A DNA stretch of 57,926 nucleotides, taken from a virus (lineage: Duplodnaviria > Caudoviricetes). The stretch lies in the IMG/VR virus record IMGVR_UViG_3300028586_000735, positions 1-57,926 of that record, one strand, 5' to 3'. The notes beneath the pieces were generated by a model. The model was given only the letters and a program-made list of their open reading frames with translations, had not been told where the DNA came from and did not search any database. Positions 2,479 through 19,042 of the stretch are shown here, piece after piece (position 1 is the first letter of the stretch; every line of letters starts with the position of its first letter). The position numbers and the translations under genes were made by a program.

Positions 2479-2666
2479 GACTTCGTCCGTGCCGCGCACG
2501 CGCAGCGTTCAAAGGGGAGCAGGGGAGGTTCCAGCCGCAATAGTAAATTCCGACCAACTGTCCGCCGCTTGGCGGTTCGTTGGCGCTCGGTGCGCTGGCG
2601 CTGTGCTACAAATATTCGTGTAATAGCTCTAGAACGGAGCTGTTGTACCGACGAGGCAAGTGGACA

Positions 2667-2882
2667 ATGGAAGTCACAAGCACTTATGAGGTCTATGGGC
2701 AGAATCGCCTACGCCTCGGAGAGATGGACGAGCATGGTGTAATCAGGAGGTCGGGCAGGGTGGTACTCCGCGTGGAGCGCGGCTCGATCTTTTCCGTGCA
2801 CGGTAGTTACATGGGTAAATGCAAGAACGGTGTCGGTAAGTCAGACCATGGTCAGCTGATCTTCACGCTGAAGCCGGTTTGA
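2667..2882 (+). CDS. Hypothetical beta-rich protein, counter-oriented
   Basis: ATG after a purine-rich region; repeated G-x-I/V beta motifs; fills an intergenic gap. Confidence 0.5.
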   Translation: MEVTSTYEVYGQNRLRLGEMDEHGVIRRSGRVVLRVERGSIFSVHGSYMGKCKNGVGKSDHGQLIFTLKPV

Positions 2883-2906
2883 TCTGACCCTTCGCCCAGG
2901 CCAGCC

Positions 2907-3227
2907 TTACGAGCCTGGGCGACCAAGCCTCTGAATAGCCGATTCATACTCTTCTTTGACGTTACTGCGCCAATTCGCAGGATCCTTCATGTAATGCACA
3001 AGCATCCAGTGAAGTGTTGCCGCCTGCTCATCTGCCGCGCTTTCGGCAATCTGATAGCCAAGCATGCGAAGCACTGTTGCCTGGCTTGCGCATGTGTAGC
3101 TCTGCCTGCCGAGGATGTAGCGCAGGTCCTCGGTAAGCGGTAGGTCTATCGAAGGTTCGGTTTTGAAGCTCGAATTCTGGTTGTTCACAGCCACCTCGGG
3201 TAGAGCTATGTAATTCGTATCATCCAT
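2907..3227 (-). CDS. Hypothetical phage protein
   Basis: 106-aa ORF, LRYILGR...EQAATLHWM...W. Confidence 0.6.
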   Translation of the reverse strand: MDDTNYIALPEVAVNNQNSSFKTEPSIDLPLTEDLRYILGRQSYTCASQATVLRMLGYQIAESAADEQAATLHWMLVHYMKDPANWRSNVKEEYESAIQRLGRPGS

Positions 3228-13724: not shown

Positions 13725-14276
13725 TCAGGCTGGCTCGTGCCTCAGTCTCGCTTCCAGGCGGTAGCGGGATGCAAGGTTCCGGGTTGCCACCTGGGCATCA
13801 TCCTTATCCTCAAAATAACCGCAACGGGCAGTCAGGTTTTCCGGGGGAAGAGATCTCAGCCCCAGCTCTATAAATCTGGAGTTTGCGTTTTCCAAAGCTT
13901 CCACAGATGAGCATTCAACACGGACGGTCCAGCCGCTTGATGGACCAGCAGGATGCGGGGCAGGCGAACTCGATAAGTCAGCACCGCAAAACCTGCATCT
14001 TACAGCGGCAGCCTTGACCGTCTCAGCGCAGAACGGGCATGAACGGGTGTCGACAGCTTCTTGCGGTTCGGGCTGAGAGGCTTTTCGCCCGAAGATCACC
14101 ATCAACAATCCAGCGATCGTGATGATTCCGCCCGTGAGCGTAAGGTTTGATCGGTCAGACATCAGGCCCAGATTGTTGACTCGCCCCAAGCCGGTGGGCA
14201 CCGATATATCCATGCCGATGGCATAGATCAAGCACGCAATACCCGCGATCAAAACAAAAATGCCAAAACTACGCAT
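13725..14276 (-). CDS. Membrane protein with zinc ribbon (immunity-region accessory)
   Basis: Two hydrophobic segments, CPFCAETVKAAAVRCRFCG, small C-terminal domain. Confidence 0.75.
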   Translation of the reverse strand: MRSFGIFVLIAGIACLIYAIGMDISVPTGLGRVNNLGLMSDRSNLTLTGGIITIAGLLMVIFGRKASQPEPQEAVDTRSCPFCAETVKAAAVRCRFCGADLSSSPAPHPAGPSSGWTVRVECSSVEALENANSRFIELGLRSLPPENLTARCGYFEDKDDAQVATRNLASRYRLEARLRHEPA

Positions 14277-14479
14277 CGCCAGTTCTCCCTGAATGATTGG
14301 AGATTTTACCACGCAGGTGAACGACGTCCGATGATCCGCACCCACAAAAAACCACTCACTGGCGGCAAGTCAGATCGGAGGTGTGCAGGTCAGCTGCAGA
14401 TCAGCAAGTCGATGCGGGATGTGCAGGTTGATGCCTGCGCGGGGTGGGGTGATCGGAGGGATTGCCTGGCGCTAGAACG

Positions 14480-14504
14480 AAAAAGCCCGGCGCCGGGCCG
14501 GGCT
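14480..14504 (-). terminator. Intrinsic terminator after the kinase operon
   Basis: AGCCCGGC..GCCGGGCT followed by TTTT on the minus strand. Confidence 0.7.
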
Positions 14505-14518
14505 ACGAGATAGCCTGC

Positions 14519-15394
14519 TTAGGCAACCCTTGGAGTCCACCAGTCGATAGTCTTTAAGGCCAACTCATCTGTAGATGGTGCTTTTATGACTGCAAGGCCG
14601 GATCGCTCAACGCGCTCGAGCTGCTTATCAATGACGTCAGAGACGCGCTTGAATTCTAGATGGTCCATTCCACTTCTTTCATTCGGCACCAGTATCGATA
14701 AAGCCCCAACCCGGTCACTGTTGTTCGACACAAGCGTAAGATCGGAAAAGGCCTGAAGAATGTTTTTCTCAGCGACTACCGGGCTTTTGTACCAAACGGA
14801 CACCACCGACCCAACCGCAGTTGAGCTCAGTAGCGGGACATCTACATCGATCGTGCCATTTTTGAGATGAAGGCGGTAGCGCTCATCTTTAATGATCGCG
14901 GAAGCGCTCAATGCCATTTTTTGCCGCATAATTTGGAATAGTCCATCGCGGAGCTTTGGCGTTGAGGTATATCGGAAAGCCTCACTGCGCGATGTGTCCT
15001 TTGGCCTACCCAGCGTCACGACATCAGAAAAAAACTCCTCAACCACAGCTTCCGGCGAATCACCAGAAGCATAAAGACTGGGTCCAAGCCTGACATTGCT
15101 ACTAATGGTATCAGGCAGCTTATCCTTGCTGGAGAAGATGAACTCCTCGATATCATGCAGATAATGGGTCAGGCTCTTGATATTTACTCGGCCGCCGTAA
15201 AGGCACTTGACACGGTCAAATGTATCAAGCATCCGAACGTCAACCTTTCCTGCATGGCAAAACATTATGCCTACGTTTAAATATTCGTCCGCGTCCTGAT
15301 CTAAACACATCTGAATAGGGCGCCATTGACCATTCACGCGCACCGGCACAGGCGATGACGCAACCTTTTGCTTAAGCCTAGCGAGAATAGTCAT
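14519..15394 (-). CDS. DUF3037-like protein, partner of the HipA-like kinase
   Basis: WRPIQMCLDQDADEYLNVGI resembles the DUF3037 motif; ATGA overlap with the kinase gene. Confidence 0.6.
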   Translation of the reverse strand: MTILARLKQKVASSPVPVRVNGQWRPIQMCLDQDADEYLNVGIMFCHAGKVDVRMLDTFDRVKCLYGGRVNIKSLTHYLHDIEEFIFSSKDKLPDTISSNVRLGPSLYASGDSPEAVVEEFFSDVVTLGRPKDTSRSEAFRYTSTPKLRDGLFQIMRQKMALSASAIIKDERYRLHLKNGTIDVDVPLLSSTAVGSVVSVWYKSPVVAEKNILQAFSDLTLVSNNSDRVGALSILVPNERSGMDHLEFKRVSDVIDKQLERVERSGLAVIKAPSTDELALKTIDWWTPRVA

Positions 15395-16266
15395 ATCATT
15401 AGCCCTACTTTGGCGCTGTATTGCCCAGGATCCAGCCGAGAAGCTAGGAATTCTAGCACCAGTTCGACCTCGGGGGGATCCATGAATTCAGATAAAACAG
15501 AGCTGGCCTGGCTCCTTCCGTTCGTCTGCCAAGCAACTGAAAAAGACTTGTAGGCTAAATTCCGCGCAGATCGGATAGGGCTTCTTTCACTCCATGATGG
15601 CACGAAGCTTTCGATCAGGTCGATTAAGGCATTACGGACCGGGAGCGGGCTGGACTCGAGCCTATCCGGAGACCATGTAGGCGTTCTGAAAATTCTTCCG
15701 TGGTCTATCAGCAGCAAATTAGCCGCAGCAGATCCAAGCAGGTTCCCGAGGTGGCGATCACTATTCTCCACCCACTCGTCGAACGAAGCTATTTTCGGCG
15801 AAACCTTGTTCGACGAAAGATCAATGGCGATTCTCGCTCTATTTCTCTGCTGCACCAGATCTGGAGCATCAGACGGACATTCCACCATGAGGGCGTCTAG
15901 CCTCATATCTTCAGAAAACCAAGCTAGGTATTCGTCTTGAGATGTTCCGGTGGCGTCCTGAGATGCTAGCTTCGCAAGCACTGATTCGGGTAGTTGGTCA
16001 GCAGTTAGGACGATTGCTCCGGCGCGACTGGCGACATCGAACCCGCAGGACTGTGCAAGTGAATACCCTAGGGCTTCACTGATAACTGATCGGTTTTCGG
16101 CGCTGCTTCCATTAGGCAAGCCTATAAGAGTGGCGAACGGCTTTATGTAGCACCTGGCGGCCGTTTCGCCGACTTGTATTCTTCCCCTGAACAGTACGCT
16201 TTCGCCGGCCTGAGCGGCATCCCTCAGCGTGCCTAGAAACGAGTCGCTTCCTAAAATCTCTAGCAT
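15391..16266 (-). CDS. HipA-like (PI3/4K-fold) Ser/Thr kinase
   Basis: YIK (ATP-binding Lys), SEALGYSLA, FDEWVENSDRHLGNLL catalytic loop, LIDHG Mg-binding motif. Confidence 0.85.
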   Translation of the reverse strand: MLEILGSDSFLGTLRDAAQAGESVLFRGRIQVGETAARCYIKPFATLIGLPNGSSAENRSVISEALGYSLAQSCGFDVASRAGAIVLTADQLPESVLAKLASQDATGTSQDEYLAWFSEDMRLDALMVECPSDAPDLVQQRNRARIAIDLSSNKVSPKIASFDEWVENSDRHLGNLLGSAAANLLLIDHGRIFRTPTWSPDRLESSPLPVRNALIDLIESFVPSWSERSPIRSARNLAYKSFSVAWQTNGRSQASSVLSEFMDPPEVELVLEFLASRLDPGQYSAKVGLMI

Positions 16267-16337
16267 GGTCTTTCCCTGAAAATTGATCCATAAAGGGGCG
16301 CCTCATAAGCCCGCACCGGTTCCGGCCTTAGCTTCGA

Positions 16338-16565
16338 CTACTCAGCCCGTTCCCGCAAAATCCGCCCATCCTTCACCTCATCCGCACAAGCCCTGAGTGC
16401 ATCAATCTGTGCGTGTAGCGCGGCGATTCTCTCCATGGCTGCGATCAGCGCGGCATCACCATGGCCCTGCGCCTCACGGAATAGATCGTGCGCCATATCA
16501 TCCAGTGCGGCAGCAGCAGCCTTCAGGTCGTGCCTTAGCTGCTGATTCGGTTTGTTGAGTGCCAT
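16338..16565 (-). CDS. Small helical protein downstream of cI
   Basis: GGAGG RBS overlapping the cI stop; 75 aa. Confidence 0.7.
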   Translation of the reverse strand: MALNKPNQQLRHDLKAAAAALDDMAHDLFREAQGHGDAALIAAMERIAALHAQIDALRACADEVKDGRILRERAE

Positions 16566-16573
16566 GTGACCTC

Positions 16574-17389
16574 CTACAAATCCCCGCCGCGCCAGATCAC
16601 CCGGCCGACGATCTGGTGTTCGTTCTGCTCACTACGCCTGAAGGTTCGATCATCGAATAAGGCCTTGTCCGCGTTGTCGCTACGGAGAAGCCACATATCG
16701 AAAGCAGCCTTGACCAGGCGCTTCACCATCGTGCCGTCTGTAACGCTCTCGATCACGAACACACCGTTGTCGATGGGTTCGACCTGCGAGCTGTCCACCA
16801 GTAGAACGTCCTGATGACTGATCGTTGGCCACATGCTTTCTCCGCTCGCGTAGATCACACGCAGGTTCTTGGGCTGAACGCCTTTAGCCTTCAGCCATTC
16901 CTTTTTGAATGCCAGGGTGCTGCGAATCTCGACGTGTGGGTTGTCGTGGCCAGTACCGGCGGCGGCCATTGCCGTGTACTGGGGGATGAAGGAATAGCTG
17001 CTATCCAGATCAATCTCTTTCTCGCCGCCTGCGGGGATGGGCGTGCTCGCCACGACGGCATCGGCGGTGCGAGGATTTGACTGCGTTTCATCCACAGCTC
17101 GGACGATACCGTTGGCGAGGGTCGGACTAACCTCCTCAAGCCTGAAGTCAAGCGCAGCCGCGAGCTTAACCAGCGCATCGAGATTCAAAGCTACCTTGCC
17201 GTTCGCGTACTGGCTGAACGCGCTCTGGGGTGAATTCCACCCGCAGCGCTCACCGACCTCGGCCTGATTTAGGGTAGGCACATCGCCGCGAGCCTTGGAT
17301 TCTTGGACGCGCCGCTTGTAAAGGGCGCGCAACCGCTCGGCGTCGGCTTCCTGCCAATCTTCCAGCGGTGTTCTGGTTGGTTTCTTCAT
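16574..17389 (-). CDS. cI: CI repressor (HTH plus S24 peptidase)
   Basis: HTH QAEVGERCGWNSPQSAFSQYANG; AAAG cleavage site; GESM serine; VKRL lysine. Confidence 0.95.
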   Translation of the reverse strand: MKKPTRTPLEDWQEADAERLRALYKRRVQESKARGDVPTLNQAEVGERCGWNSPQSAFSQYANGKVALNLDALVKLAAALDFRLEEVSPTLANGIVRAVDETQSNPRTADAVVASTPIPAGGEKEIDLDSSYSFIPQYTAMAAAGTGHDNPHVEIRSTLAFKKEWLKAKGVQPKNLRVIYASGESMWPTISHQDVLLVDSSQVEPIDNGVFVIESVTDGTMVKRLVKAAFDMWLLRSDNADKALFDDRTFRRSEQNEHQIVGRVIWRGGDL

Positions 17390-17396
17390 GTGCGCG

Positions 17397-17476
17397 ATTA
17401 AGTAGCAGCGCTGATAGTTAATCAAACAGCACTGCTAATCCTTTCCTTGTTTTTTATAAAACAGCAGTGCTAATAT
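17397..17476. promoter_or_regulatory. OR region: three operators, PRM and PR
   Basis: AGCAGCGCT 17404-17412, AGCACTGCT 17428-17436, AGCAGTGCT 17463-17471; PR TTGTTT..TAATAT; PRM TTGATT-17-CTTAAT on the minus strand. Confidence 0.8.
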
Positions 17477-17503: not shown

Positions 17504-17701
17504 ATGAAGACAGTAACCCTTGGGGAGTACCTGGCAACTCATGGCACCCAGAGCGACCTCGCCAAGGCACTGGGCATTCAGCAGAGCGCCGTCTCCCAGA
17601 TGCACCGATCAGGTCGCACCATCACCATCACTTTGATGGATGACGGCTCGCTATTGGCCAACGAAGTAAGGCCAATTCCCGCAAGAAAATCAGCCGCTTA
17701 A
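17504..17701 (+). CDS. cro: Cro repressor
   Basis: Divergent from cI; TQSDLAKALGIQQSAVSQM HTH. Confidence 0.9.
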   Translation: MKTVTLGEYLATHGTQSDLAKALGIQQSAVSQMHRSGRTITITLMDDGSLLANEVRPIPARKSAA

Positions 17702-18241: not shown

Positions 18242-19042
18242 ATGCCTATTCCCCAACACATAGTCAACTCTGTGCTCTCGCGCCACGAAATTGCACATTC
18301 GCAAAACGTGGCGCGCACGATGTCATCGCGTGAAATTGCCGATCTGACCGGCAAGCAACATTTTCACGTGAAGCGCGACATCGAAAAGATGCTCGCGGAC
18401 CTTCAGGAAGATCCATCCATTTATGGATGCACCTATCTCGACGGACAAAACCGCAATCAGACTGAGTATCTGCTCGACCGTGAGCACACCGACTGCCTGC
18501 TCACCGGCTACAGCGCTGCAATGCGCATGGCCGTGATCAAGCGTTGGCGCGAACTAGAATCAGCGGTCGCCAAACCAGCGTTCGATGTTGCAAGTCTGAA
18601 CGATCCCAAGGTGCTACTCGCTCTGCTGACCGACAACGTCCGTAAGGTCGTTCATCTGGAGGCTGACAACACCGAACTTACGCAGGAGAACCAGCTGCTG
18701 GAGCAGAAGCTGGTTGCCGATGCTCCGAAGGTTGAGTTCTTCAGCGCTGTTATCACCTCGACCAGCATCCACTCTGTGCGGGAGGTGGCCCAATCCATTG
18801 GCACCGGCCAGAACCGTCTGTTCGCGTTCATGCGCCAGCAGCGCTGGGTGGACCGTAACAACACGCCATATCAAGGCCGGGTTGAGTCAGGGTATCTGGT
18901 GGCTGAGCCGCATTCCTACAACTGTCCTGAAACCGGTGAGCGCAAGACGAAGTTCACCTGCAAGGTCACCGGCAAGGGCTTTACCAAGCTGCAGGCGTTG
19001 TGGGCCGGTCGAGACAAAGCGATCTTGGGCGGTGCCGCATGA
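18242..19042 (+). CDS. Rha-family / KilA-C antirepressor
   Basis: MSSREIADLTGKQHFHVKRDI (Rha) plus DAPKVEF...GQNRLFAFMR...KVTGKG (KilA-C). Confidence 0.85.
   Translation: MPIPQHIVNSVLSRHEIAHSQNVARTMSSREIADLTGKQHFHVKRDIEKMLADLQEDPSIYGCTYLDGQNRNQTEYLLDREHTDCLLTGYSAAMRMAVIKRWRELESAVAKPAFDVASLNDPKVLLALLTDNVRKVVHLEADNTELTQENQLLEQKLVADAPKVEFFSAVITSTSIHSVREVAQSIGTGQNRLFAFMRQQRWVDRNNTPYQGRVESGYLVAEPHSYNCPETGERKTKFTCKVTGKGFTKLQALWAGRDKAILGGAA

Follow-up and report, generated by a model that had tools for sequence, protein, structure and literature searches.

The stretch of DNA analysed here (the window, 57,926 nucleotides [nt]) is the whole of one provirus record, IMG/VR IMGVR_UViG_3300028586_000735 (Duplodnaviria; Caudoviricetes), and it carries, downstream of a cI-type repressor gene, two coupled genes for a HipA_2-like Ser/Thr kinase and a DUF3037-like partner protein. 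We consider it probable that this pair is a divergent, Pseudomonas-type member of the systems known as HipAD, DS-6, and PDC-M66, and that it is a prophage moron within the immunity operon, acting as a lysogen-expressed kinase-toxin/antitoxin module for abortive infection. Gene structure, kinase fold, catalytic residues, remote homology, synteny, and recurrence were established in this analysis; what is said of defence, of the need for the kinase, and of toxicity when the partner is missing comes from papers on homologues (PMC12548924 and PMC13092281). An earlier note on this DNA, made from the sequence alone, knew of no characterised function for such a pairing, a statement that is now outdated, as the pairing is that of PDC-M66, DS-6, and HipAD. 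The named system removes most of the novelty claimed for the locus; the match is inexact, with remote relatives that fall below thresholds. A system of this kind has thus already been named and tested, and the window pair is a new divergent branch of it, missed by current family models at the thresholds used.

Both genes are on the minus strand and encode 291 amino acids (aa) each: the kinase, presumed to be the toxin, at 15391..16266 (identified from the open reading frame [ORF] list, Pfam, PHROG, a structure model, Foldseek, and hhalign), and the two-domain partner, presumed to be the antitoxin, at 14519..15394 (ORF list, Pfam, PDC-M66B, PHROG, and model). The two ORFs share the ATGA overlap that the earlier note had described (15391..15394, minus strand; the plus strand reads tcat), in which the TGA stop of the kinase gene meets the ATG start of the partner gene, as in translational coupling. 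Database relatives number 47 for the kinase (E-values down to 1e-170) and 93 for the partner (down to 1e-188), placing both genes far beyond chance. An intrinsic-terminator-like hairpin at 14484..14504 on the minus strand (8 pairs, 7 of them G-C, with a loop of 5 and a T-rich tail) starts 15 nt past the partner stop codon and closes the operon, where a terminator had been placed at 14480-14504. Upstream and in the same orientation, again as first proposed, is the cI-type repressor gene (16574..17425, minus strand; Pfam matches HTH_3, 3.5e-4, and Peptidase_S24, 6.8e-14), the first gene of the presumed immunity transcript. On the minus strand from cI to the pair, there is no terminator-like site of a strength near that of the 14504-14484 hairpin. 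Terminator-like sites in the region number 6, as compared with 4.7 ± 1.7 in shuffles, so the total is not raised; the strongest listed are those at 14504-14484 and 13706-13685. The G+C content of the pair (0.48-0.53) is below that of its flanks (0.56-0.63), which fits a moron. The pair occupies the position of rexAB in lambda.

An AlphaFold model of the kinase, built from an alignment of 32 relatives, has a predicted local distance difference test score (pLDDT) of 91.0 and a predicted template modelling score (pTM) of 0.89. Foldseek matched it to 171 solved chains at E ≤ 0.001, with HipA (3tpv) at the top (E 1.2e-5), followed by HipT of Legionella and Escherichia coli, Helicobacter CtkA, and type II PI4-kinases; the template modelling (TM) scores of the best solved matches are 0.41-0.55. 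Nine residues are invariant among the 32 relatives, which range down to 26% identity: K42, E64, D170, R171, G174, N175, D188, H189, and G190. The catalytic motifs read by the earlier note (K, E, DRH.GN, and DHG) therefore hold with one amendment, since H172 varies among these relatives. With its catalytic residues intact and invariant and its fold preserved in the model, the protein looks like an active kinase of the HipA/PI4K-like branch. The N-terminal domains of HipA are missing from it, and its chain is the shorter of the two. Other matches are to PI3_PI4_kinase in Pfam, which is weaker than that to HipA_2, and to two PHROG families of unknown function (phrog_11186 at 1.1e-14). A sequence search of solved structures with the kinase returned nothing significant, the best matches (E 0.17-0.4) being to catalytic loops of PI4-kinases, and NCBIfam gave only a weak TIGR03843 match (E 0.0088) for the two proteins.

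Experimental work on the pairing comes from two papers. According to PMC12548924, a HipA-like/DUF3037 pair beside Retron-Sda1 corresponds to the PADLOC candidate system PDC-M66; deletion of the kinase abolished defence against phage Bas51, deletion of the DUF3037 gene was toxic, and the reverse transcriptase, the noncoding RNA, and a helix-turn-helix (HTH) gene were dispensable. These deletion phenotypes identify the kinase as the toxin. PMC13092281 (DefensePredictor) describes DS-6 as a HipA-related kinase with a protein bearing DUF3037 and DUF1829; a catalytic mutant of DS-6A gave no defence, and AlphaFold3 put DS-6A against DS-6B. The same paper states that DS-6 was found independently in E. 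coli prophages and renamed HipAD by Brenes and Laub (2025, Cell Host Microbe). HipAD, PDC-M66, and HipA_2+DUF3037 pairs are one kind of system, and the slot they occupy is the slot of the window pair.

The layout in the window has a direct counterpart in Escherichia phage PhiR5_1 (PV340545.1), which was retrieved by tblastn with a canonical partner. Its annotated order is cro / cI (HTH+S24), HipA toxin (249 aa), HipD antitoxin (275 aa), kil, gam, bet, and exo, and the HipA and HipD genes overlap by 4 nt. PhiR5_1 HipA scores 257.9 bits with HipA_2 and 53 bits with PDC-M66A; HipD scores 84.6 bits with DUF3037 and 57 bits with PDC-M66B. The canonical pairs at loci L014 and L019-L021 are similar (HipA_2 268-299 bits, DUF3037 79-95 bits) and are also in kinase-first order. 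Among 401 sampled genomes of the same class as genome G001 (which holds locus L005), six carry canonical PDC-M66B. The genome of Stutzerimonas xanthomarina (G003) holds both a canonical pair (L014, PDC-M66B 2.8e-16) and a window-type pair (L009/L018), so the two types are distinct coexisting lineages, not simple orthologues.

Profile-profile comparison links the window pair to these systems. The alignment of 32 kinase relatives aligned with seven canonical kinases, each encoded upstream of a PDC-M66B-type gene, at an hhalign probability of 97.4% (E 1.1e-11, 124 columns), and with PhiR5_1 HipA at 90.9% (E 1.1e-6). An exhaustive profile search with the partner found 292 representative clusters at E ≤ 0.001, nearly all of about 285-305 aa and matched end-to-end; a wide alignment of 115 of them aligned with four canonical partners at 91.3% (E 9.7e-7, window residues 22-127) and with PhiR5_1 HipD at 62% (E 7.6e-5). 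Among the 115 partner family members, PDC-M66B was matched in 24 (best 1.2e-7) and DUF3037 in 22 (best 7e-9) at E ≤ 0.001, and kinases of relatives reach PDC-M66A at E 0.0025 (L002) and 0.0095 (L012). The partner itself also matches phrog_14695 (1.1e-22). By these sequence comparisons, the window pair is a distant branch of the HipAD/PDC-M66 superfamily, remote kin that lie below curated thresholds. The HipA-like identity first given to the kinase is upheld by profile-profile comparison and fold; the DUF3037-like identity given to the partner is indicated by the wide family alignment and not by a narrow one. Both proteins fall short of the curated Pfam cut-offs.

Several results weigh against the assignment. 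Among curated models, the kinase matches Pfam HipA_2 (PF20613) only over residues 154-194 (E 1.7e-5, 24.6 bits, cut-off 27), and in the PADLOC models it has no PDC-M66A match at E ≤ 1. The partner matches Pfam DUF3037 (PF11236) at E 0.011 (16.3 bits, cut-off 22.6) and PDC-M66B at E 0.027 over model positions 9-77 only, both matches falling on partner residues ~27-94. BLASTP of the window kinase against PhiR5_1 HipA aligned the catalytic loop only (31% over 64 residues, E 6e-4), and that of the partner against HipD was confined to one short motif, E-x-x-N-[VI]-G (E 0.031). A narrow partner alignment gave no alignment with the canonical partners (24.5% over 32 columns), and its hidden Markov model (HMM) matched no canonical partner at E ≤ 10; the C-terminal half of the partner thus has no sequence link to HipD-type proteins. 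DUF1829, described for DS-6B, was not matched at E ≤ 1 in the window partner or at E ≤ 0.001 in any of the 115 family members. It was likewise unseen at E ≤ 0.01 in the four canonical partners and in PhiR5_1 HipD, so this domain may not be a defining feature of the family. Further, the homologues whose activity was tested lie outside the clade of the window, and the transcript structure is deduced from the arrangement of genes; a promoter scan of the region was uninformative (3 sites, 2.9 expected).

The pair recurs as a unit. The kinase gene is directly upstream of the partner gene in 10 of 10 species-representative genome loci, from Pseudomonas (5), Azotobacter (2), Stutzerimonas, Halomonas, and Marinobacterium, and in all 31 viral-contig loci; the sets appear to share elements, since the proteins encoded upstream at no fewer than 4 genome loci match viral counterparts at 100% identity. 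At 8 of the 10 genome loci the kinase match ends on the first base of the partner gene, a junction like that of the window. A repressor-like gene is found upstream on the same strand at 31 of 31 viral loci and 9 of 10 genome loci, with none found at L013. In Pseudomonas phage vB_PaeS-D14P the pair is directly behind the annotated cI, and a remote version of it stands behind a Phage_CI_repr gene in Moraxella phages Mcat18 and Mcat22. The Mcat22 locus (KR093646.1, L003 2683-4861) encodes Phage_CI_repr, a 282-aa kinase-like protein, and a 290-aa DUF3037-like protein (PDC-M66B 2.8e-7), all annotated as hypothetical.

Two layouts can be distinguished upstream of the pair. In that of the window (L004, L005, L007/L043, and L025-L029), a gap separates an S24-type cI gene from the pair behind it; kinases at these loci are the nearest to that of the window (56-91% identity), except for L007/L043 (40%). 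The closest viral relative is L025 (kinase 91% and partner 93% identical). In the other layout (23 nonredundant loci), the upstream gene encodes an HTH protein of 160-250 aa and ends 8-23 nt inside the kinase gene. Phage vB_PaeS-D14P has this second layout. The absence of a HipB-type HTH partner, on which the earlier note remarked, is therefore true of the window and does not extend to most relatives in the clade, in which the start of the kinase lies within an HTH gene.

The gap between cI and the kinase in the window holds a 75-aa ORF (orf75, 16338..16565, minus strand; ORF list and phrog_6388), which had been omitted from the description in the earlier note. Among the 10 genome loci only L005 has a homologue at the same place, and among the 31 viral loci only L028 and L029 do; orf75 is no conserved part of the system. 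At L025 its place between the repressor-like gene and the kinase is taken by a 155-aa ORF (2576-3043) whose N-terminus, judged by eye, resembles a lipoprotein signal peptide. The interval from cI to the pair is in its own right a slot with variable contents.

From this arrangement a mode of action can be proposed. In the lysogen, the cI promoter would drive cI, orf75, the kinase gene, and the partner gene as one message ending at the hairpin at 14484-14504, with synthesis of kinase and partner presumably coupled through the ATGA overlap. The partner would bind the kinase and keep it inactive until infection by another phage frees or activates it; the freed kinase would then phosphorylate an essential target in the host (or one in the phage), stopping growth and aborting the infection. 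The earlier proposal of a lysogen-expressed, phosphorylation-based toxin or abortive-infection module in the rexAB slot agrees in this respect with the published homologues (PMC12548924 and PMC13092281) and with the layout in PhiR5_1; only its description as an uncharacterised pairing has been overtaken.

Two results bear on individual steps of this scheme. Prediction of the kinase-partner complex on two alignments scored 0.57, as compared with 0.02 for the best control, which ranks as "weak support"; at least 96% of contacts are shared between runs, and the partner pLDDT is at least 86. Of 80 solved complexes, 58 attained the mark applied, as did 2 of 110 mismatched pairs. Scores of 0.60 or less that reached it came from only 7 of the 80 solved complexes and from both passing mismatches. 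As to expression, one metatranscriptome library yielded five contigs at least 99% identical to the window at a depth of 2-5, covering 14336-14485, 14502-14652, 14848-15102, 15245-15428 (which spans the ATGA junction), and 16840-17063 (in cI). In this RNA library (X3), 15484-16739 and the cro/ant side are without contigs, which at a depth of 2-5 is uninformative on expression. The contigs are a weak hint of lysogen-type expression, and their depth is compatible with carried-over DNA.

The same architecture, in which a kinase toxin is coupled to the partner gene behind it, resembles that of a plain addiction module that stabilises the prophage by post-segregational killing and plays no anti-phage role; carriage on a mobile element (the provirus record) and the toxicity that follows loss of DUF3037 in a homologue (PMC12548924) also fit such a module. 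We nevertheless regard this as quite unlikely to be the whole function, since homologous pairs cloned away from their element gave kinase-dependent defence (PMC12548924 and PMC13092281) and since the constant place of the pair in a lysogen-expressed immunity operon is the classical site of exclusion genes. Addiction and defence are, moreover, compatible with each other.

The association with repressor genes allows a different role to be considered. In the second layout, the HTH proteins (for example, the ORFs at L002:3469-4023, L006:4579-5157, L008:4570-5145, L010:4627-5151, and L030-L055) share a conserved C-terminal module of about 90 aa with the motifs [ST]-P-R-[ST] and G-R-L-[ST]-[ED]. Median identity between loci is 43% for the module and 45% for the kinase, as against 17% for the N-terminal DNA-binding parts, which are essentially unrelated; the Spearman correlation with kinase divergence is 0.54 for the module and 0.08 for the N-terminal part. 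The divergence of the module parallels that of kinase and partner alike. An HMM of the module matched 34 frames, every one directly upstream of a window-type kinase; the window, the loci of the S24 layout, the canonical PDC-M66 loci, and the Moraxella phage gave no match. Kinship of orf75 to this module was rejected (hhalign 0.3%).

There is some chance, which we put as low, that in the Pseudomonas/Halomonas-type clade the pair is functionally wired to the prophage repressor through the module as a third component; the module could then be a HipB-like tether or a phosphorylation target. Were this so, the kinase would couple the sensing of superinfection to the lysis-lysogeny switch, and the window version with its S24 repressor would be an uncoupled two-gene form. 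Linkage alone, through shared history, could explain the co-divergence of module and kinase. In a literature search that was not exhaustive, nothing in print was found on a link between the pair and a repressor module.

A separate reading, in which the kinase belongs to the prophage's own lysis-lysogeny circuit and acts on or with the repressor (for example, in phosphorylation-controlled induction), draws on the presence of the pair behind a repressor-like gene in every viral locus, on the overlap of repressor stop and kinase start in most relatives, and on the fact that the repressor module tracks kinase divergence and the DNA-binding part does not. It appears improbable for the window, whose repressor is of the self-cleaving, SOS-type S24 class and is without the module; physical linkage by itself can yield such a correlation, and homologues defend without any phage repressor (PMC12548924 and PMC13092281). 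An abortive-infection module expressed in the lysogen remains our preferred interpretation.

The partner is predicted to consist of an N-terminal DUF3037-like domain (~1-130), a disordered linker (133-140), and a C-terminal domain with a restriction-endonuclease-like fold (~144-291); the model is less well defined than that of the kinase (pLDDT 79.7, pTM 0.57). Foldseek found no solved chain at E ≤ 0.001 for it, and its sequence matched nothing significant among solved structures (best E 0.0027, a helicase segment). An exhaustive VIA structure search, which barely covered the N-terminal domain, aligned residues 144-291 to restriction-endonuclease-like (PD-(D/E)xK / ERCC4-type) domains, with Z-scores of 9.2 for CdiA-CT (4zqu), VC1899, and FAAP24, 8.8 for BsoBI, 8.5 for Can2, and ~8 for ERCC1, Hef, and XPF; a Z of about 9 barely exceeds the stated background of 7-8. 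The acid-acid-lysine set is not kept, and S199 is the sole residue at least 90% conserved in this domain across the wide family, so that, in the model, the domain has an endonuclease-like fold and is probably non-catalytic. That the partner is a nuclease effector acting through this domain, with the kinase as its sensor or regulator, is suggested by the structural alignments (Z 8.5-9.2) and yet is highly improbable, because these scores scarcely rise above background, no catalytic set is conserved, and in a homologue deletion of the partner is toxic and deletion of the kinase ends defence (PMC12548924).

An integrase gene lies at the left end of the window and a tRNA-Leu gene near the right end. 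Divergent from cI on the plus strand is a cro-like gene (17504..17701; phrog_35), followed by an Ant-type anti-repressor gene in the early-right operon (18242-19042, plus strand; phrog_63, 4.2e-52) and then a replication-initiator gene. The prophage combines an Ant-type anti-repressor gene with a repressor that bears an S24 self-cleavage domain.

Just downstream of the pair is a separate small unit, the gene for a 206-aa protein (13725-14345, minus strand) that bears a zinc ribbon and is predicted to contain membrane segments (phrog_8032, 2.5e-42; UPF0547, 7e-6); the unit has its own terminator-like site at 13706-13685. At viral locus L026, a gene 42% identical to it sits after the pair. This gene may be a second moron. 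Immediately beyond the terminator of the pair, at 14351-14413, one contig of DNA run X2 replaces 61 bases with 769 others, and one contig of DNA run X1 (depth 6.7) departs from the window sequence at 14351; the boundary downstream of the pair is polymorphic between samples.

The pair extends a validated family of kinase defence systems, HipAD/PDC-M66, to a divergent clade. Because the Pfam and PADLOC models miss this clade at the thresholds used, inventories of prophage defence in Pseudomonas, Azotobacter, Halomonas, and related genera may be under-counts. Temperate phages of E. coli, Pseudomonas, and Moraxella, though unrelated, carry such systems in the slot after the repressor gene. With another, distant branch at hand, the substrate and the trigger of these kinases could be approached by comparison, using residues conserved in both branches, an interface common to them, and the repeated association with repressor genes.

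The rexAB genes of lambda and the Stk kinase gene of 933W are lysogen-expressed exclusion genes located downstream of cI in the immunity transcript. Position alone is common to them and the window pair; there is no sequence or family kinship, and the Rex and Pkinase families are absent from the Pfam, PADLOC, NCBIfam, and PHROG matches of the pair.

HipBA and HipBST share with the window the kinase fold (Foldseek matches to HipA, HipT, and Legionella HipT at E ~1e-5), the catalytic D..N loop, and the D-x-G magnesium motif. They differ in that the window has neither a HipB/HipS partner nor the N-terminal domains of HipA, matches neither HipA_C nor HipA_N in Pfam at E ≤ 1, reaches TM-scores of only 0.41-0.46, and has as its presumed neutralising protein an unrelated one of DUF3037 type. 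Membership in the type II HipBA class was rejected, as there is no small HTH gene beside the kinase and no HipA_C or HipA_N domain; only the fold is HipA-like.

The Retron-Sda1 pair and the window type have in common an HTH gene in the operon. In the Sda1 pair, defence requires the kinase, and loss of the partner is toxic. That pair is tied to a retron reverse transcriptase and noncoding RNA and not to the immunity operon of a prophage, and the C-terminus of its partner is said to resemble a retron DNA-binding protein (PMC12548924). PDC-M66 has the same two-protein architecture as the window pair, with A the kinase and B the DUF3037 protein. Judged from the E-values of its models, a PADLOC call for the window locus looks unlikely.

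The closest resemblance is to HipAD/DS-6; the DS-6 and Retron-Sda1 pairs were compared by their descriptions, with PhiR5_1 HipA/HipD standing in for sequence comparison. The window kinase is 291 aa long, whereas PhiR5_1 HipA is 249 aa; HipA_2 and DUF3037 scores are 258 and 85 bits in PhiR5_1 and 24.6 and 16.3 bits in the window; the C-terminal half of the partner cannot be aligned by sequence; DUF1829, described for DS-6B, was undetected in the window partner; and the window has an extra 75-aa ORF between cI and the kinase. Against these differences, both are kinase-first two-gene operons with a partner of ~280 aa, a 4-nt overlap, and no HipB, located directly after an HTH+S24 cI gene and ahead of the early-left genes, and by profile comparison the kinase core and the N-terminal domain of the partner are homologous. 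The window pair and the canonical pairs agree in the order and coupling of their genes, in the sizes of the proteins, and in where they lie in the genome.

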